Shown: positions 26,603 through 38,270 of the stretch, piece after piece
Layout: each line of letters starts with the position of its first letter
Numbering within the stretch: position 1 is the first letter of the stretch
The notes under the pieces: model-generated
What the model saw: only the letters and a program-made list of their open reading frames with translations
The model's database searches: none
What the model was told of the DNA's origin: nothing
Source: Thermoplasmata archaeon
Lineage (GTDB): Archaea; Thermoplasmatota; Thermoplasmata; GCA-020350865
Length of the DNA stretch: 64,000 bases
NCBI GenBank assembly: GCA_020348445.1
Contig: CP070751.1
Span: 4,392,901-4,456,900 of the forward strand
Direction: 5' to 3'
Position numbers and translations under genes: made by a program

Positions 26603-26994
26603 GTAAATCGTGGCTGTATCTCAAAGCCTGCATTAAGGTTTTTCGGGGGAGGTTTTTCTCGATTTCTCGAAAATCGTCATCGGTTTTAAGATATTCATCA
26701 ACGATAATCGGACGATAGCCTTTAAATATGACAGGTAATGATATTATTCCCACCATGATAATCAAGCTACGCAATGAAAACGACCTAATTAAGATGTGCA
26801 GGCAGATGGTAATTGTCAGCCACTATCACTCCTATGAACAGTACCGAAGTGGAAATAAAAAAATCGATTTTAAATTAAAATAAATTATTTATTAAAATCC
26901 ACTTCACCTAAGAATTAAATTTGGATTGGGGTTAGGCACTTCGAATAATCTTTAGCTTAAACTCAATTAGAATAAGTCGAATTCTTAGTTTTAA

Positions 26995-27169
26995 TGCGGG
27001 AGCCGGGTGTTTGAGTTTAAGAAGTAATTGACGTCACAGCATAACTCAAACACTAGGCTCCCGCACGAAATAATTTAATATAAAAGAAAAGTGCGGGAGC
27101 CGGGATTTGACACGAATAGAAAGGTGCTTGATACTGCTTAGTATCTCCTTTCATCCTATCAACTCCCGG
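26995..27169. repeat. Two hairpin elements built from copies of the tRNA-Gly 3' end
   Basis: tgcgggagcc(26995-27004)+gtgtttgagtt pairs with aactcaaacac+ggctcccgca(27056-27065); a 19-nt copy tgcgggagccgggatttga at 27092-27110 whose ccgggatttga part pairs with tcaactcccgg (27159-27169). Confidence 0.9.
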
Positions 27170-27217
27170 AAAAAATATAGATTAATTTAATCTCCCTCAG
27201 CTTATAAGATAATTGAA

Positions 27218-27328
27218 TGCGGGAGCCGGGATTTGAACCCGAGTTATAAGCTGTCTACGGCCTTCTTCTGCCAGGCAAAAGAAAGGCTCTTGGCAAGCTT
27301 AAGTGATACCAGACTACACTACACCCGC
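27218..27328 (-). tRNA. tRNA-Gly(GCC) with a 38-nt intron at 37/38 (intron 27253-27290)
   Basis: Cloverleaf GCGGGTG..TAAGC TTGCCAA GCTTA..TCGGG TTCAAAT CCCGG CTCCCGC A after intron removal (73 nt). BHB geometry: bulge CA|A, 4-bp helix TTGC/GTAG, bulge AC|A. Confidence 0.88.
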
Positions 27329-27442
27329 ATAATACGAGCTTCAAGGGAATTATGTTGGGAGTTTTTAATCTTTGTGTTTTTCAATGTGCGAGTACATAGG
27401 ATAGGGGGAAAGGATTTATTTCTGCAAGACAATAGTCCTGCA

Positions 27443-27847
27443 ATGCCCCCTTTCTTAGAAACCATTGCTGTCAAGACAAAATCCAGCTTCGAGATGGTGA
27501 ACATCACAAGTCATGTGAATAAGGTGGTTGCGAAATCGAAAGTTAATCAGGGCAACCTCATGGTGTTCACCCCCCATACCACCACTGCAATAACAATAAA
27601 CGAGGACGAACCAGGACTTGTTGCTGACATTCTAAGAAAAATTTCTGAGTTGGTACCAAAAGGGGAAGGGTATTCCCATGATCGTATAGACAGCAATGCT
27701 CACGCTCATATACTCGCTTCAATAATTGGTCCTTCTGTTTCCATACCAATAATAAAAGGAAAAGCAGCATTGGGCACCTGGCAGTCAATTCTTTTTATCG
27801 AACTCGACGGTCCGCGGAATCGTAGGATCATGGTGCAAATTGTTTAA
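27443..27847 (+). CDS. yjbQ: YjbQ / UPF0047 family (secondary thiamine-phosphate synthase)
   Basis: HTTTAITINE, HDRIDSNAHAHI, LGTWQSILFIELDGPRNR; start reassigned to ATG 27443. Confidence 0.92.
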   Translation: MPPFLETIAVKTKSSFEMVNITSHVNKVVAKSKVNQGNLMVFTPHTTTAITINEDEPGLVADILRKISELVPKGEGYSHDRIDSNAHAHILASIIGPSVSIPIIKGKAALGTWQSILFIELDGPRNRRIMVQIV

Positions 27848-27933
27848 AGCACGCTTTTCTGATAACACTTTCAGAACAAAACCCAAATACTTATTTAAAG
27901 GTAGTTATATACTGATTCTACCGGAGGAACAAA

Positions 27934-28257
27934 TTGCAGCGGAAGACTCAAGGACAACAGACATTTGTTCGATTACGTCTACCAAAAAGAAATGAAGGCG
28001 AAATATTTGGTATAGCAGAGCAGCTTCTGGGTGCCTCCCGCATAAAGGTCATGTGTGCCGACGGGAAATCGAGGCTGGGTCGAATCCCTGGAAAGATCAA
28101 AAAGAGGATGTGGATAAGAGAAGGCGACCTGCTAATTGTCAGACCCTGGAACTTTCAGGATGACAAGGCTGACATAATCTACAGGTACACGAAAACTCAG
28201 GCAAGTTCCTTGAAGAGAAAGAAGTTGTTACCAATTGAATACAATGACATGTTTTAG
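27934..28257 (+). CDS. eif1a: Translation initiation factor aIF-1A
   Basis: [38 protein letters not shown]; TTG start behind SD GGAGG. Confidence 0.96.
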
Positions 28258-28291
28258 TTTGCGTAATTGATTTCAATTTGGGCGGAGTGCA

Positions 28292-29059
28292 ATGAAAGAG
28301 GAGGAGTTATACCGTATTTTGGAGGGTAAGATCCAGGTCTTAGAGAGGCGGGAAAAGAGTGTCGAGGACCGCAAAACCTATGATGAGGTCTTTGACAGAA
28401 ACACCCTCTTGGCAGTGTACAAACTGATTTCCTCGGGTGTGATGGAGACCTTGGACTATCCAATTTCAACAGGAAAAGAGGGAAATGTTTTTTGCGCTAC
28501 TAAAGAAGATGGGAGCCTGCTTGCAGTGAAGATCTACCGCGTTTCAACGTCCACATACAAGAATCTCACAAAATATATCACTGGAGACCCGCGATTTCGG
28601 AACATCCCAAAAGACAGAAGAGGCATAATTTATACCTGGGCCAGAAAGGAATATAAGAATCTATCCCGGATGTCTGCTGCAAAGATAGCGGCTCCCGAGC
28701 CTATTAAACAGATTAACAACGTACTTGTAATGCAATATCTCGGTTCAAAGGAGCAACCCGCACCCATGCTCAAGGATGTTTTATTGGATAATCCAAAAAA
28801 GAGCTATAAGAGCATTTTAAATACGATTAAAAACCTCTATATCAATGCAAAACTGGTACACGGGGATCTCAGCGAGTACAATGTCCTTGTAGAAGACGGG
28901 AAATGCTTTCTCATAGATGTTGGGCAATCAGTGGTATTAGAGCATCCCTTGGCCCAGGAGCTGTTGAAAAGAGATGTCTCAAATATGGCCAGGTACTTTA
29001 AAAAACTGGGATTGGATACAGATGAAGAAGATATGCTTAGATACATCAGGGGGGATTAG
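28292..29059 (+). CDS. rio1: RIO1-type Ser/Thr kinase
   Basis: ISTGKEGNVF, AVKIYR, LVHGDLSEYN, IDVGQSV. Confidence 0.95.
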   Translation: MKEEELYRILEGKIQVLERREKSVEDRKTYDEVFDRNTLLAVYKLISSGVMETLDYPISTGKEGNVFCATKEDGSLLAVKIYRVSTSTYKNLTKYITGDPRFRNIPKDRRGIIYTWARKEYKNLSRMSAAKIAAPEPIKQINNVLVMQYLGSKEQPAPMLKDVLLDNPKKSYKSILNTIKNLYINAKLVHGDLSEYNVLVEDGKCFLIDVGQSVVLEHPLAQELLKRDVSNMARYFKKLGLDTDEEDMLRYIRGD

Positions 29060-29062
29060 AAA

Positions 29063-29608
29063 ATGATGTATGTGAAGATACCTCTTGAGAGGGTGGGCGT
29101 TCTTGTGGGTAAGAACGGGGAGATCAAAAAGAAAATAGAGGATGAAACTGGCACATCCCTTGTTATCGATTCAAAAAGTGGGGATGTAACAGTTGATGAT
29201 TCTAATTCACAGGATCCAATTCTAACTTTGAAGTCAGCTGACATGGTAAAGGCGATAGGCCGCGGTTTCTCCCCTGAGAAAGCCCTGAAGCTGCTTTCTG
29301 ATGAGGTCTTTTTTACGTTGATCGATATAAGGGATTATACTGGAAAGAATCAAAAACATGTGCGTCGGGTCAGGGCCAGGCTCATCGGGACCAAGGGAAA
29401 GACCAGAAAGCTCATCGAGGAGTTAACTGGTGTTTCTGTGTCCATTTACGGCAATACAGTGGGAGTGATAGGGGAAAGCCTTGAGATGAACATAGCAGTT
29501 TCAGCAATAGAGATGCTGCTAAAAGGAAGCGAGCACTCTGCTGTTTACGGTTTTCTTGAGAAGAAACGAAGGGATATTGAGCTTGCAGAGATGGATTTTT
29601 TAAATTGA
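29063..29608 (+). CDS. KH-domain ribosome-biogenesis protein (Dim2/Pno1)
   Basis: RVGVLVGKNGE, AIGRGFSPE, RLIGTKGKTR, GSEHSAVY. Confidence 0.93.
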   Translation: MMYVKIPLERVGVLVGKNGEIKKKIEDETGTSLVIDSKSGDVTVDDSNSQDPILTLKSADMVKAIGRGFSPEKALKLLSDEVFFTLIDIRDYTGKNQKHVRRVRARLIGTKGKTRKLIEELTGVSVSIYGNTVGVIGESLEMNIAVSAIEMLLKGSEHSAVYGFLEKKRRDIELAEMDFLN

Positions 29609-29612
29609 CTAA

Positions 29613-31709
<2,097 letters not shown>

Positions 31710-31743
31710 AGTAATTAATGTGATTGGGTTAATTTAGAAAGGA

Positions 31744-34203
31744 GTGAGAGTATTGGCTGATGAAATCGAAGCAGAGGAAGAGGAGCAAAAACGGGTGATA
31801 TTCCGCTCAATCGAGGACGAGATGAAGACCTCTTACATCGATTATGCAATGAGTGTCATAGTGGGAAGGGCTCTTCCAGATGTCAGAGACGGTCTAAAAC
31901 CCGTTCACAGGCGGATTCTCTATGCCATGCAGGAATCTGGTATGACCCCAACAAAGCCCTACAAAAAGTCCGCCAGAATCGTTGGTGAGGTCCTTGGTAA
32001 ATACCATCCCCACGGGGACATGGCTGTTTACGACTCCATGGTTAGGATGGCCCAGGATTTTTCTTTAAGATACATGCTTATCGACGGCCAGGGTAACTTC
32101 GGTTCAGTTGACGGTGATTCGGCAGCAGCCATGAGATACACCGAATCGCGGCTCAACAAAACAGCCCAAGAGATGCTCGAGGACATCGATAAAAATACAG
32201 TGGATTTCATCCCAAACTACGACGGCTCGTTAAAAGAGCCCGTTGTTCTCCCCTCTAAACTGCCGAACATGCTCATAAACGGCTCATCAGGTATTGCCGT
32301 GGGCATGGCCACCAATATGCCCCCTCATAATCTCGGCGAGGTCGTGGATGGAATCATCCAAATGATCGACGAGCCTGAATCCGACGTAAACGAGATAATG
32401 AAGTTCATAAAGGCCCCAGATTTCCCAACAGGGGGAATAATATGCGGAATAAACGGCGTTCTGAGTGCATATACCCTGGGCAGGGGATTGATTCGCGTTA
32501 GGGCAAAGACAAAAATCGAACAGGGCAAAAAAGACAAGGACCGTATTATAGTCACAGAGATTCCTTATCAGGTAAATAAGTCCAATCTCCTTGAGGCAAT
32601 AGCCAATCTCGTGAAGGATAGAAAGGTCGACGGAATAACTGATTTAAGGGACGAATCAGACAGAAAGGGAATGCGCATAGTAATTGAGCTGAGAAGGGAC
32701 GCCATACCCGATATAATTCTGAAACAGCTCTACAAGCACACCCAGATGCAGACCACGTTCGGAATAATAAATCTCGCCCTGGTGGACAACCAACCAAAGG
32801 TTCTCAGCCTCCCCGATATAATCCATCACTTCATCTCCCACAGAAGGGAGATGGTGAGAAGAAGAACCGAGTTCGAGCTGGACAAGGCCGAAAGGCGGGC
32901 CCACATCCTTGAGGGCCTGATGGTTGCCCTGGACAACATAGACGAGGTCATCAACATAATAAGGAAATCAAAATCCCTTGATAATGCAAGAGATTCCTTG
33001 AAGGCCAAGTTCCTCATAACAGACGAGCAAACAAAGGCGATTTTGGAGATGAGGTTACAAAAGCTCACAGGCCTTGAAAGACAGAATGTAAAGGACGAGC
33101 ACGAGAGTATCAAGAAAAGTATTACCCAGTATCGGAAAATCCTTGAAAGCGACACTGAGATATATGAAATAATAAAGAGCGAGCTTAGGGAAATCAAGGA
33201 GAAATATGGTGATTCCAGACGATCCGAGATCGACTACGAGGCAGCTGACGACTATGACATAGAGGAGCTCATACCAGATGAGGAGGTCGTGGTGACCATC
33301 ACAAATACTGGATACATAAAAAGGCTGCCACTTGACACCTACAGAATTCAAAAAAGAGGTGGGATCGGACTCATGGGCATGGGGACAAAGGAGGAGGACT
33401 ATGTAGTTGACCTATTTGTCACCTCAACCCACAATTACATACTATTTTTCAGCAACAAGGGCAAGGTTTACTGGCTTAAGACCTACAAGATCCCGTCTGG
33501 TGGGCGGCATGCAAAAGGCAAGGCAATAATCAATCTGCTCCCCAGGCTTGATCGGGGCGAGATCATCAACGCCGCCATTTCTGTAGAGGAATTCACCTCG
33601 GCCCAGTACCTCACATTTGTCACCAAGAAGGGAAGAATTAAAAAGACAGTTCTAAGCGCCTACAAGAGGCCCATGATAACAGGAATAAAGGCTGTAACCC
33701 TCCGCGAGAGCGATGAGCTTGTAGAGACAAAGCTCACAAACGGCCAAAAAGAGATCATCATAGCCACTAAAAATGGCCAGGCTGTCAGGTTCCAGGAGGG
33801 TGATGTAAGGCCCATGGGCAGGGTGGCAAGCGGTGTTATTGGAGTAAGGCTCAAAGGTGACGATGAGGTTGTGGGCATGAGCGTTGTAGAGGAGGACTCC
33901 ATACTTCTCACCATCACAGAAAACGGCTATGGAAAGCGCTCTCCTGTTTCCTCTTACAGAAAGACCAAGAGGGGGGCATCAGGAGTTATTACAATCAAGA
34001 CCACGGAGAGAAACGGCAAGGTCGTTTGTACAAAAGAAGTCTCAGCCGACGACGAATTGATAGTTACAAGTCAGAATGGAATGATAATAAGAATCCCTGT
34101 CAGAGGAATCAGCGTCCAGGGCAGGGCCACCATGGGAGTTCGGGTCATGAAAATGAAGGAAGGGGATAGGGTCGTGAGTGTGGCTAGGCTGGTCCAGGAG
34201 TGA
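31744..34203 (+). CDS. gyrA: DNA gyrase subunit A
   Basis: [19 protein letters not shown], catalytic AAMRYTE, GyrA-box-like QKRGGIG, C-terminal beta-pinwheel repeats. Confidence 0.97.
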
Positions 34204-34471
34204 AAAAATATCCCAGGACCCCCCTACAACCACTGAGGATCGTGTATTCATTTGAGGGCATACCTCGGTATTCAAGGTGTTGGAGGTGTGTAGGGGGGGA
34301 GTTATCATCAAATCCTTATAAGATAGCACTTTTGTTGTCATTATCTTAAAAGATACGCACCATCTGGCCGCGTTTTTCCTTGCTATGGTCCCATTATGCG
34401 CCAACTTCGTTTCTCATAAATTCGACAATTATAAATATGTCCTTTATGATTCAACAAATGGAGGGAATTTC

Positions 34472-35296
34472 GTGCGAAACACATCCAGAAATGGCACATT
34501 TTTGGTATGTTCGATATTCATGACTATTTTGGTTTTGTTGAACTTTTTTTGCCCCACATCTGGTGATCCTCAACCATCCTATGCAAACAACATCTTATAT
34601 CTTCATTATGACGATGATCAAGATGGCGATAATAGATCCTGGATGAATGCAAGTGCCGATATGATAAGTGGTGGATATAGTGGAAGTGCGGGAATTGGTT
34701 CCTTTACATTGGACTTTCCAATGAAGCCGTCATTGGACAGAATATTACTCCCTGATCCTGATGTGCAATATAATGTGGTGGTAACACTGCATTTAGATGC
34801 TGACGCGACCAACCCATTAAATCCGATATCACCGTTGCGGAATGTTTGTATAGAATTGAATATAGGCAATAGTCAAACCCGTGCCGAGGCCCCAGACAAT
34901 GTAGACCCAGGCTATATCACTTTCAATCTCCATATAGGAATGAATAGGATTGAAAACGGAACATCAATTCTTCTTACAGTCCATTTTGAAGTGATTGAGG
35001 GCAGTTATAACTTGCATGCCGATGGATCAAGTTTAATTACCTTTTCATTGTTGGAGGATACTGATTTTGATGGAGACCCTGATTCCACTGATTTAGATGA
35101 CGATAATGATGGTTTTACAGATGAGAAAGAAATTGCGGCGGGGACAGATCCAAAGGACCCGAATTCTAAACCGTCCTCGGATGGGGATGACGGAAATGGA
35201 GGTGGATTTGTGTCTCAGTCATGGCCATGGATATTAGGTATTACTGTTTTGATTATCATAGTCCTTGTTGTAGTTTTTGTGTATAAAAAGAGATAA
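34472..35296 (+). CDS. Exported membrane-anchored protein with thrombospondin type-3-like Ca-binding repeats
   Basis: GTG 34472 behind SD GGAGGG; hydrophobic N-terminus; DTDFDGDPDSTDLDDDNDGFTDEKE..GTDPKD; C-terminal TM + KKR. Confidence 0.75.
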   Translation: MRNTSRNGTFLVCSIFMTILVLLNFFCPTSGDPQPSYANNILYLHYDDDQDGDNRSWMNASADMISGGYSGSAGIGSFTLDFPMKPSLDRILLPDPDVQYNVVVTLHLDADATNPLNPISPLRNVCIELNIGNSQTRAEAPDNVDPGYITFNLHIGMNRIENGTSILLTVHFEVIEGSYNLHADGSSLITFSLLEDTDFDGDPDSTDLDDDNDGFTDEKEIAAGTDPKDPNSKPSSDGDDGNGGGFVSQSWPWILGITVLIIIVLVVVFVYKKR

Positions 35297-35299
35297 AAA

Positions 35300-35440
35300 G
35301 GGGCCGCCCAGCCCTGAGGATTAAGAAATAATTGTATTATAATTACAACCGAGGGGCGTAGTGGCTCAAAGTATTAATTTAATTATCAATTTGAATTGAA
35401 CCACGGCGGCCCCACGTATCAATTTAATATAAAATTAGAG
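35300..35440. repeat. Hairpin element built from copies of the tRNA-Pro 3' end
   Basis: ggggccgcccag (35300-35311) equals the tRNA 3' end on this strand and pairs with ggcggcccc (35405-35413); a 26-nt spacer leads to the tRNA. Confidence 0.85.
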
Positions 35441-35515
35441 TGGGGCCGCCCAGATTTGAACTGGAGTACCAGGCTCCCAAAGCCCGAAGGATTGACCAAG
35501 CTACCCCACGGCCCC
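35441..35515 (-). tRNA. tRNA-Pro(TGG)
   Basis: GGGGCCG...CGGGC TT TGG GA GCCTG...TCCAG TTCAAAT CTGGG CGGCCCC A. Confidence 0.95.
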
Positions 35516-36440: not shown

Positions 36441-38270
36441 ATGTTCGAGGTCCTAAAAAGAAATGGCCTGGCAAGAACCGGAAAATGGCTCATTGAAGAG
36501 CAGGATAAGGAAGTGGGAACACCAAATATTCTGTTTTTGAATACTGACAGGATCAAAGCACCGCAGGAGGCTGAGGTTTTAATTGTTGATTCCGAAATCC
36601 CAACTGATTGGCCCTACATCAAATCCGGCCACAGCCTCTTTTCAATATCTGATGATAATATTGATGATTACACTGTCTCACCATATCTTGTTTACCCTCC
36701 CAGCCAAAAAGAGATAAATGATTATGCTGCCAAACTAAATAAGGATAACATAACAAGCAAGGTATTTGTTGTAGCTGGAAAAGATGAATCCATCGCAGAT
36801 TCAGTATCAGATGTGGATGCCGAGGTTTTTGTTCTTCCAAATGCGCCTCATTTGATTACAAGGCCAAGGTCATTTGTTAATACCCTAGTGAACCTGCGAG
36901 AGTCAATCGGATACCAGAGAATGATTTACACTCCGGGATTGGGAACTCCTTCCCATATTGCTCTTTTATTGTACTGTGGTGTAGACCTTATTGATTCCAT
37001 CCCCCTTGTATTGAATGCGAGACTTGGTTACTTTCTTTTCACTCATACCAAACTTCAAAAAGAAGACATAACCGAAGATATCTGCTTTTGCCCTGCTTGC
37101 CGTGAAGGTAAAAAGGATTACGAATCTATTCTGGCCCATAATTATTATGCAGCCCTTTCAGAGCTTAAAACAGTAAGAAATACGATTCATCTGGGTCAAC
37201 TCAGGGAACTTGTTGAGGCACGAGTTCGAGCCGAGCCCTGGATGGTTTCAGTTCTTCGAATCCTAGACAGGGAAAATTACCCATTTTTGGAAAGGAATAT
37301 CCCAGTTTCCGGAGGATCCATAATTGCCACAACCAACGACTCACTCCAAAGGCCAGTAATTATCCGCTTCAGAAACAGAGTCAGGGATAGATACAAAAAA
37401 CCCCAGTCAAAGAAAGTCCTGCTTCTTCTTCCTTGCTCTGCTAAGAAGCCTTATTCGTTTTCGAAAACCCACAGGATCATAAGATCTGCATTTAAAGAAC
37501 TTACAAATAGACATGTGATTCATGACGTTGTGATAACCTCACCTCTGGGTGTCGTGCCAATGGAGGTGGAGCTGTTCTATCCGGCGCAGAACTATGATAT
37601 TCCAGTAACAAGGACCTGGAGCAAGGACGAAATATCCATGATTCAGGAGGGAATTTCCGAGTTTCTGAAAAAGAATCGATACGACGGTATTGTTGTTTAT
37701 TTACCTGAGGATTACAAGTTTGTAGGCGAAGTCCTTGATGACCACACAAATACCTGTATCGATACTACCACATCTTCTGCTTCCCTTGAAAAACTCAAGG
37801 AAGTATTGAATGACCTTGTGCTGCCCTATGATAAGATAGGTGCAAAGAAAGCCATGAGAGAAAGCATGGATTGTTTTGCACGGTTTCAATTCGGGATTGC
37901 AGGAGAGAAACTTGTTAAAGATGCAGAGATAAAGGGGCGCTACCCAAACCTGAGAATAATAAGAGATGGAGTACAAATTGGAATGCTTGTGGGTGATAGG
38001 GGAATGATATCGTTAACGTTAGAAGGTGGTAAGATATTGGCCGAGGAAAATTCTTATCGAGTAAAGATTCACGATTTTCAACCCAAGGGAAGCATTTTTG
38101 CAGTTGGAGTAAAAGATTCCGATGATGAAATTAGAATAGGTGACGATGTTGTGGTTCTCAGGGATAACGAGCTAGTTGGGGTGGGTGTTGCCCAAATGAA
38201 TCCTGATGAGATGATAGAAAGCGAAAGGGGCGAGGCAGTGAGAATTAGGCATCTTGTAAAATCGAAATGA
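36441..38270 (+). CDS. arcS: Archaeosine synthase ArcS (TgtA2) with a C-terminal PUA domain
   Basis: Degenerate TGT-like N-terminus (ARTGK, LRELVE.R.R..P), LLPCSAKKPYSFSKTH, PLGVVPMEVE..YPAQNYDIPVT, PUA tail. Confidence 0.9.
   Translation: MFEVLKRNGLARTGKWLIEEQDKEVGTPNILFLNTDRIKAPQEAEVLIVDSEIPTDWPYIKSGHSLFSISDDNIDDYTVSPYLVYPPSQKEINDYAAKLNKDNITSKVFVVAGKDESIADSVSDVDAEVFVLPNAPHLITRPRSFVNTLVNLRESIGYQRMIYTPGLGTPSHIALLLYCGVDLIDSIPLVLNARLGYFLFTHTKLQKEDITEDICFCPACREGKKDYESILAHNYYAALSELKTVRNTIHLGQLRELVEARVRAEPWMVSVLRILDRENYPFLERNIPVSGGSIIATTNDSLQRPVIIRFRNRVRDRYKKPQSKKVLLLLPCSAKKPYSFSKTHRIIRSAFKELTNRHVIHDVVITSPLGVVPMEVELFYPAQNYDIPVTRTWSKDEISMIQEGISEFLKKNRYDGIVVYLPEDYKFVGEVLDDHTNTCIDTTTSSASLEKLKEVLNDLVLPYDKIGAKKAMRESMDCFARFQFGIAGEKLVKDAEIKGRYPNLRIIRDGVQIGMLVGDRGMISLTLEGGKILAEENSYRVKIHDFQPKGSIFAVGVKDSDDEIRIGDDVVVLRDNELVGVGVAQMNPDEMIESERGEAVRIRHLVKSK

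Follow-up and report, generated by a model that had tools for sequence, protein, structure and literature searches.

Among the described systems that come closest to the elements treated here are the integrons, which together with attC clusters without an integrase gene are held by archaeal metagenome-assembled genomes (MAGs) (PMC9668308), and the archaeal integrative elements, whose tyrosine recombinases usually target tRNA genes (PMC8371274). The window analysed in this work is a stretch of 64,000 nucleotides from the MAG of a Thermoplasmata archaeon (GenBank assembly GCA_020348445.1, contig CP070751.1, positions 4,392,901 to 4,456,900, forward strand), in which a small fold-back element follows each of two tRNA genes, tRNA-Gly(GCC) and tRNA-Pro(UGG). 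Both window elements belong to a family in which a common hairpin core is framed by direct and inverted copies of the end of the host tRNA.

Family layout, tRNA linkage and range

The two elements sit 3′ of tRNA genes of the minus strand and, read in tRNA sense, present the same order of parts: the 3′ end of the tRNA (D), a 26-nt spacer, an inverted copy of that end (D′), two unpaired bases, an inner hairpin (H), and a direct copy of D. Across the family this layout becomes D, an AT-rich spacer of 24–26 nt, a D′ made of the inverted last 10–11 nt of the tRNA, an H of 47–48 nt, and a direct copy of the last 12–13 nt. The comparison of copies shows that the H core is the shared and exchangeable part, and that the variable part consists of the direct and inverted last 10–13 nt of the host tRNA. 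At both loci the H loop begins with GTTAT and finishes with TCTTAA, and TTAAGAARTAATTG starts 21 nt past the first G of the left arm. All sequence strings, coordinates, and counts that a first-pass annotation, made from the letters alone, had given for the two loci are present in the window base for base.

The source MAG (G000) is about 82% complete. Its nominal single contig of 5.16 Mb is composed of 354 pieces joined by runs of 100 N, so that positions in it are not chromosomal and its GC skew carries no meaning; the window lies within an unbroken piece of 135 kb. The genus is represented by five genomes, among them G000, G001, G002, and G004. A search of G000 with nhmmer and a hidden Markov model (HMM) of H found 65 copies, 44 of them at no more than 700 nt from a tRNA call, compared with about 1.3 by chance. 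On the 3′ side of the tRNA are 42 of these 44 copies, and the first unit starts 34–42 nt past the tRNA end. The design is repeated behind more than 20 tRNAs of this genome and occurs in all five genomes of the genus, in which the covariance model R1 gave 70, 37, 48, 32, and 28 copies, numbers that are lower bounds. In the window, R1 matched the two reported elements only.

The short motifs of the two loci follow the same distribution. The string AATTTAATATAAAA occurs five times in the 5.16 Mb, four times in module spacers (Ile, Phe, Gly, and Pro), and the four occurrences of TTAAGAARTAATTG in G000 are all in hairpin loops directly behind tRNAs (Leu-CAG, Gly, Pro, and Arg-CCU). For ATTAATTTAAT, at least five of 11 occurrences are in tRNA-flank elements. 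Both elements are confirmed as real members of a genus-restricted family, beyond chance. The conserved backbone with tRNA-programmed arms that the first-pass annotation had proposed is borne out by the same design behind more than 20 tRNAs of G000 and in the five genomes, and its motifs recur at other tRNA loci and in relatives and are not part of the AT-rich background.

Beyond the genus, R1 had no match in 76 genomes from 46 other Thermoplasmata genera. When 185,579 species genomes were scanned for an exact pattern, the only matches came from four MAGs of this group, among them CP070739, a chromosome of 3.2 Mb under the label Methanomassiliicoccales archaeon. True modules also occur on about 25 metagenome contigs, with 34 R1 matches, and no partner gene was evident on them at a glance. 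A pattern match in a single viral contig of IMG/VR was discarded, since the R1 model did not hit it. At E ≤ 1, Rfam returned the two tRNAs and no other family at both loci; a sub-threshold match to permuted transfer-messenger RNA reflects only the succession of tRNA end, loop, and inverted end. No description of such a tRNA-flanking family was found in the literature, which agrees with the earlier impression that this was not a described element, and the fold-back family with host-templated arms is apparently undescribed.

Outside the window, about 25 tRNA genes, including a second tRNA-Gly(GCC), are gathered within 3 kb (G000:C1:4640570-4643566), a region in which nhmmer found no H, in contrast to the dispersed tRNAs. 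This cluster may be a foreign or mobile tRNA array.

Concerted arms, turnover and strand symmetry

The acceptor stem of tRNA-Gly(GCC) in G000 contains a U6·U67 mismatch, whereas the pair is U6·G67 in three related species. The T that replaced G67 is present in the gene and in both further direct copies of its end, and the corresponding position of D′ carries A (C>A). In the three other species, position 67 is G and D′ has C, and the orthologous tRNA-Gly ends in three other genomes of the genus read GGCGCCCGCA. The presence of T or A at all matching sites of the G000 Gly locus indicates that one change spread to four places, the gene included, and D, D′, and the tRNA's own end are shown to evolve in concert. 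The possibility that D′ is a copy of the 5′ strand of the tRNA was rejected, since opposite T67 it has A, which is the complement of the 3′ strand.

A hybrid in G002 presents these parts in mixed form. Its duplicated tRNA-Pro has a last 11 nt, a spacer, and a D′ that are Gly-like, with 77% identity to the nearby Gly module, and then continues with H and a proper Pro end, so that the breakpoints fall at the T-loop/D and H/D junctions. Judged from its sequence, this Pro/Gly hybrid is an apparent unresolved intermediate. The similarity of cores and the similarity of arms were compared by a Mantel-type test, which gave r = 0.32 with only 11 clean units, a value equalled or exceeded in 107 of 2000 permutations. 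The tRNA-Gly(GCC) of G002 (L025, G002:C66) has no anticodon-loop intron and carries a 27-nt insertion within the T-loop, which is probably a non-canonical intron.

All compared genomes of the genus have the Gly and Pro modules behind the corresponding tRNAs, and many G001 cores have their best G000 match behind the same tRNA. At other loci the composition changes: tRNA-Ala(UGC) is followed by two units in G000 and one in G001, the number of units at tRNA-Leu(UAA) differs between genomes (three versus two), the Ala-CGC module is truncated in G001, and tRNA-Ala(GGC) has a distinct fold-back element (type 2) in G001 and H in G000. The Gly locus also received a type-2 insert of 107 nt, which with its duplication of 19–20 nt is present in G000 and G001, while the same site is empty in G004 and G002. 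The core itself also changes place. The H behind tRNA-Arg(CCU) of G001 has 93% identity to the first of the H copies that follow tRNA-Ala(UGC) in G000 and is less like any other H of G000, that of Arg-CCU included; the few differences of this pair include a compensatory change of C-G to T-A. Near-identical H behind Arg in one species and Ala in the other indicates that the core moves between tRNAs, with arms that are local.

Covariation was evaluated in an alignment of 27 sequences from all five genomes. Seventeen of the 21 stem pairs were altered on both sides, and none of 500 shuffles reached the observed covariation score. The helices comprise an outer one of 10 bp and an inner one of 9–11 bp, with an internal loop of 2×2 to 3×3 nt and one unpaired base after CTTAA. 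On the tRNA-sense strand the stem mismatches were 20 G·U versus 28 A·C (15 versus 20 in an independent count), the fold energies of sense and antisense strands are equal, and 31 copies favour each strand. Given this strand symmetry of the mismatches, nothing indicates a selected RNA strand. Inverted H loops occur as well, in G001 at Gly-GCC and in G000 at three tRNAs (Pro-CGG, Leu-GAG, and Ala-GGC). Strand symmetry and loop inversion are traits of a DNA palindrome rather than of selection for an RNA of one strand.

The coordinates of the parts in the window are given in Table 1. As single-stranded DNA, the Gly hairpin, closed by the arms 26995-27004 and 27056-27065, folds with −22.3 kcal/mol (z = −7.9), and the Pro element, with arms at 35300-35308 and 35405-35414, forms a three-way junction of −20.8 kcal/mol (z = −3.6). 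The hairpins that tRNA end, spacer, and D′ can form instead have −13.2 and −16.8 kcal/mol, with z of about −6. The additional hairpin of the Pro element, hp1, occurs with covarying arms in three genomes (G000, G001, and G004) and is missing from G002. What had been described earlier as an extra tandem unit at the Gly locus turned out to be the type-2 insert, different in kind, and the duplicate of the tRNA end that accompanies it.

Table 1. Parts of the elements at tRNA-Gly and tRNA-Pro, in window positions, and examples of a related design, in G000 positions
Feature	Position	Strand	Evidence
tRNA-Gly(GCC), with 40-nt anticodon-loop intron; 3′ end GGCTCCCGCA	27218..27328	-	Rfam tRNA, 48.5 bits
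Type-2 insert of 107 nt, a distinct small fold-back element with core GAAAGGAGAT..CCTTTC, between tRNA-Gly and the tRNA-end duplicate	27111..27217	-	filled and empty sites; relatives at other tRNA ends
Second direct copy of the tRNA-Gly 3′ end, 19 nt, T-loop to discriminator	27092..27110	-	identical to 27218-27236
Gly spacer, AT-rich, 26 nt; in tRNA sense TTTTATATTAAATT, T-run, TATA-like stretch	27066..27091	-	20/26 identical to Pro spacer
Gly D′, inverted last 10 nt of tRNA-Gly	27056..27065	-	can pair with 27092-27101 or 26995-27004
Gly H, conserved inner hairpin: 11-bp stem, GTTAT..TCTTAA loop ends, one unpaired base	27007..27053	-	R1 match 26992-27069, 88.1 bits; covariation
Third direct copy of the tRNA-Gly end, 13 nt, forming the 3′ arm of the outer stem	26995..27007	-	sequence
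tRNA-Pro(UGG)	35441..35515	-	tRNA call, Rfam tRNA
Pro spacer, AT-rich, 26 nt, with TTTTATATTAAATT	35415..35440	-	sequence
Pro D′, inverted last 10 nt of tRNA-Pro	35405..35414	-	sequence, fold
hp1, extra hairpin of GTGG..CCAC type nested between Pro D′ and H; spacer-like loop	35361..35404	-	separate arm in fold
Pro H, B stem variant GCCCCTCGG..CCTCAGGGC, family loop ends	35311..35358	-	R1 match 35296-35373, 55.1 bits; compensatory stem changes in orthologues
Direct copy of the tRNA-Pro end, 12 nt, without discriminator	35300..35311	-	starts 4 nt beyond the stop codon of a convergent gene
Twin-hairpin units in G000, examples	70964, 395423, 1385646, 2191825, 2621040, 3219240, 3473525, 3486794

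The genes between the two tRNAs encode housekeeping functions (aIF-1A, RIO1, a KH protein, gyrase B and A, and others), for which reason a genomic island bracketed by the two elements was rejected. Just past tRNA-Pro, positions 36441-38270 (+) encode a protein of 609 aa with partial TGT, DUF5591, and PUA domains, which is archaeosine-pathway-like.

Related designs are present in the same genomes. The type-2 elements form a fold-back family of about 107 nt at tRNA ends with duplications of 19–20 nt, and besides the window they were located in G000 near 5100148-5100400 and 2192084-2192240 and at the loci L047 and L061. A third type, of about 230 nt, is found behind two tRNA genes of G000 (154342 and 5034552) and within a G001 module (L060). 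Mirror-image units with a GTGG..CCAC hairpin stand 5′ of tRNA-Ala(GGC) and tRNA-Lys in G000. In addition, at least eight aligned twin-hairpin units combine a GTGGCCTAT..ATAGGCCAC hairpin with a B-type H, and the HMM list includes more probable copies; these units have CCCACC flanks and lie in C/T-rich DNA, away from tRNA 3′ ends.

Proposed explanation and its rivals

The explanation that we propose, and to which we give about an even chance of being correct, is a genus-restricted, non-coding, DNA-level fold-back repeat on the 3′ flanks of tRNA genes, with a mobile H core and arms retailored by hairpin templating. The copies show that modules have inserted beside the last 12–13 nt of tRNA genes. 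A module would enter at the boundary between the T-loop and the last 12–13 nt of the tRNA gene, through a site-specific reaction that would depend on the hairpin and probably on single-stranded DNA. The tRNA would be reconstituted, the incoming unit supplying a replacement tRNA end and a T-run terminator. Two overlapping hairpins, one formed by tRNA end, spacer, and D′ and the other by D′, H, and the D copy, may template one another during replication or repair; this mutual templating would correct the arms to the local tRNA and keep the stems perfect. Copies that left the tRNA broken would be lost unless a second gene compensated. Some copies of the module carry extra hairpins, and the AT-rich spacer gives a T-run directly after the tRNA. 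The order D-spacer-D′-hairpin-D fits the one-strand exchange of a folded circle and a guide model of the IS200/IS605 type equally.

Several results weigh against this proposal. The searches for Y1 HUH, tyrosine recombinase, Cas1, and reverse transcriptase revealed no enzyme linked to the modules. Each of the five genomes of the genus has Y1 HUH transposase genes, and a back-to-back pair beside a PIN-domain gene (L084, G000:C1:4214534-4215446) has 80–90% identity across the genus; no H lies within 3 kb of Y1 genes, and the flanks of the conserved pair are unique and unrepeated. The resident IS200 of 661 bp was rejected as a source, its left-end and right-end (LE/RE) hairpins being unrelated to H. 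Tyrosine recombinases, which the first-pass annotation had suggested looking for as co-distributed partners, are few across the genomes of the genus and unlinked to modules. A clean comparison of empty and filled sites for the H module was not found at Leu-UAG, Arg-UCU, or Ala-CGC between G000 and G001, where the flanks were unalignable or the module was truncated. Moreover, H keeps the orientation of the tRNA in 39 of the 42 copies on the 3′ side, which is unexpected under free flipping, orthologous H stems have diverged by about 4–5% versus 16% in the loops, and most H at orthologous tRNAs are mutual best matches. These mutual best matches and the low divergence of stems indicate that many copies are old and have been conserved, and a host function would be compatible with this as well. 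Finally, the templating of one arm by the other is itself deduced from patterns.

Other candidates for an associated enzyme gave the following picture. A homologue of the Y1 pair with 63% identity occurs in G005, from a sister genus free of modules. A 342-aa Y1 protein was rejected as the enzyme of the modules, as only three of the five genomes have it. The search of G000 for tyrosine recombinases (PF00589) found two C-terminal fragments only. One fragment (G000:C1:1864225-1864380) is beside tRNA-Leu(UAA) and the other (2412539-2412649) beside tRNA-Met, the pattern expected of integrase genes split on integration; the tRNA-Leu(UAA) region also has an rve-type integrase fragment and a 342-aa Y1-domain protein. 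Cas1 (PF01867) and reverse transcriptase were not found in G000, whose incompleteness leaves their absence unproven.

If the hairpins were a functional RNA, they would be co-transcribed tRNA trailers or small RNAs with their own promoter, whose closing stem would mimic the acceptor/T-arm helix and serve in tRNA end processing, quality control, or decoy binding. The conserved loop-end motifs and covarying stems agree with it, as do the constant orientation already mentioned, the retention of orthologous copies with stems more conserved than loops, the T-run and TATA-like motif of the spacer, and an outer stem that corresponds to the acceptor stem together with part of the T stem. We consider it improbable, because G·U and A·C mismatches are equally common, both strands are equally stable, and loops are inverted at orthologous sites in different species with the module still kept; the tRNA-mimic RNA suggested by the first-pass annotation thus finds no support. 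Further, there is no Rfam match, and the design is also present 5′ of tRNAs with a different hairpin and at CCCACC sites without a tRNA. Strand symmetry and loop inversions would fit the spontaneous dynamics of palindromes, and a purely local origin, by replication template switching that leaves an inverted triplication of the tRNA 3′ end at a T-arm palindrome with no mobile unit, would account for the direct-inverted-direct order of the tRNA end and for the likeness of the H 3′ arm plus CC(C) to T-loop plus T-stem. This origin is very improbable, and the shared core largely refutes it: more than 20 unrelated tRNA loci in five genomes have H loop motifs, spacer motifs, and linkers in common, near-identical H cores stand behind different tRNAs, the H stem is independent of the local T-arm, and only one genus has the family, whereas T-arms exist everywhere.

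The remaining rivals are mobile elements of known kinds. If the module were a single-strand element moved by a Y1 HUH nuclease, in the manner of IS200/IS605 or of repetitive extragenic palindromes (REP) arranged as hairpin-forming doublets (REPIN) or bacterial interspersed mosaic elements (BIME), D′ would be a guide that pairs with D on both sides, and the unit spacer-D′-H-D would be pasted 3′ of the guide match. In fact D′ lies directly 5′ of the hairpin foot, with D upstream as the target and again at the 3′ end of the element, and the guide and cleavage-site geometry of IS608 resembles this placement. Insertion after the terminal D would account for tandem units with D between them, a single unpaired base of the hairpin is conserved, direct and inverted D alternate with two kinds of linker as in BIME arrays, and Y1_Tnp genes occur in all five genomes, the back-to-back pair included. 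We judge this explanation unlikely all the same, for the reasons seen in the enzyme search (no Y1 gene flanked by H, unique flanks of the pair, unrelated IS200 end hairpins, a homologue of the pair in a genome without modules, and the 342-aa protein in three of five genomes), and because known guides have 4–5 nt compared with the 10–11 nt here and the model by itself gives no account of an H core behind a different tRNA with new arms. An integron-like system has a still smaller likelihood in our estimate. In it, the hairpins would be attC-like folded sites, the 26-nt spacers empty cassettes, and the tRNA end the attI at which a tyrosine recombinase exchanges one strand; strand exchange alone would leave D′ un-retailored, the outer arms are different at every tRNA, so that no R box is conserved, there are no open reading frames (ORFs) between the sites, the sites are dispersed over more than 20 tRNA loci with no single array, G000 has only the two integrase fragments, and the recombinases of relatives are unlinked. 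On the other hand, D-spacer-D′-hairpin-D is the exact outcome expected when a folded circle and its target exchange one strand, the two helices, the internal loop of 2×2 to 3×3, the one unpaired base, and the variable terminal loop have the expected form, and the two published observations cited at the outset, on integrons and tyrosine recombinases of archaea, count in its favour.

Returning to the fold-back repeat with a mobile core, we put forward as a tentative and rather doubtful idea that the hairpin retailors itself: a mobile DNA hairpin of about 48 nt would land by the last 12–13 nt of a tRNA gene, and arm templating would rewrite its flanks, at times the tRNA end too, so that any tRNA could host it without a sequence-specific recombinase. 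If this were true, a mobile element would here adapt to its targets in a new way, and concerted change in the acceptor stems of tRNAs would have a new source. With arms rewritten by the hairpin, a tiny element without genes could colonise a whole gene family without breaking it, a spare copy could overwrite the acceptor ends of tRNAs, and chimeric or split tRNA genes could arise. Hairpin extrusion and the single-strand DNA transactions of archaea could also be studied in this compact natural system, and in practice the family is a marker of this uncultured Thermoplasmata genus.

Comparison with known systems

REP, BIME, and REPIN sequences are, like the modules, gene-less palindromes present in tens of copies per genome, with alternating orientation and set linkers. 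The modules differ from BIMEs and their REP-associated tyrosine transposases (RAYT) in having no GTAG-like tetranucleotide, the foot following the tRNA instead (GTGG, TGCG, GCGG, and others), in the Y1 genes not flanked by modules, and in a strict association with tRNA ends. With the IS200/IS605 family they share a stretch 5′ of the hairpin foot that could act as a guide by pairing with the cleavage sites on the flanks; the complementarity in the modules is 10–11 nt long and locus-specific, and the end hairpins of the resident IS are unrelated. The geometry D / spacer-D′-H-D suits a guide-type insertion, and the boundaries would be the same under conservative recombination within D.

Tandem inversion duplication and quasi-palindrome correction give the same direct-inverted-direct order, perfect arms, paired changes, and loop flips. 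The modules differ from template-switch duplications in a core and spacer common to unrelated loci and species. In contrast to miniature inverted-repeat transposable elements (MITEs), the flanking repeat is always the tRNA end and its length varies from 10 to 20 nt; a transposase-bearing parent element was not found in G000, in viral contigs, or in metagenome contigs. Casposons make target duplications of 14–15 bp, and no match to their Cas1 family (PF01867) was found in G000, with the limit given above.

The integrative elements of archaea that target tRNA genes, of the SSV and pNOB8 types, also insert in the 3′ part of the tRNA, reconstitute it, and leave the displaced partial end as a direct repeat (PMC8371274). 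The module is distinguished from them by its size of about 100 nt without ORF or integrase, by a repeat of 10–13 nt (19–20 nt in type 2), and by the inverted copy of the target. The attC sites of integrons are likewise imperfect hairpins of roughly 60–120 nt that are meaningful as folded single strands, with two helices, an unpaired spacer and base, and a variable terminal loop (PMC9668308). In addition, the order of repeats around a unit is that around a cassette, and copies are more alike within a lineage. The modules differ from attC sites in an outer box that is the local tRNA end and is variable, with the R″/R′ core boxes (RYYYAAC / GTTRRRY) absent, and they lack cassette ORFs, a single array, and an attI/intI platform, the intervals being spacers of 24–26 nt or linkers of 13 nt. 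The attC-like topology therefore holds and integron membership fails: of the attC-like hairpins proposed by the first-pass annotation, the shape and the order of repeats remain, without the R box, the cassette ORFs, and the link to IntI. The palindromes of REP, attC, and MITE are usually recognised by a fixed sequence, whereas here the arms copy the host tRNA and change along with it.

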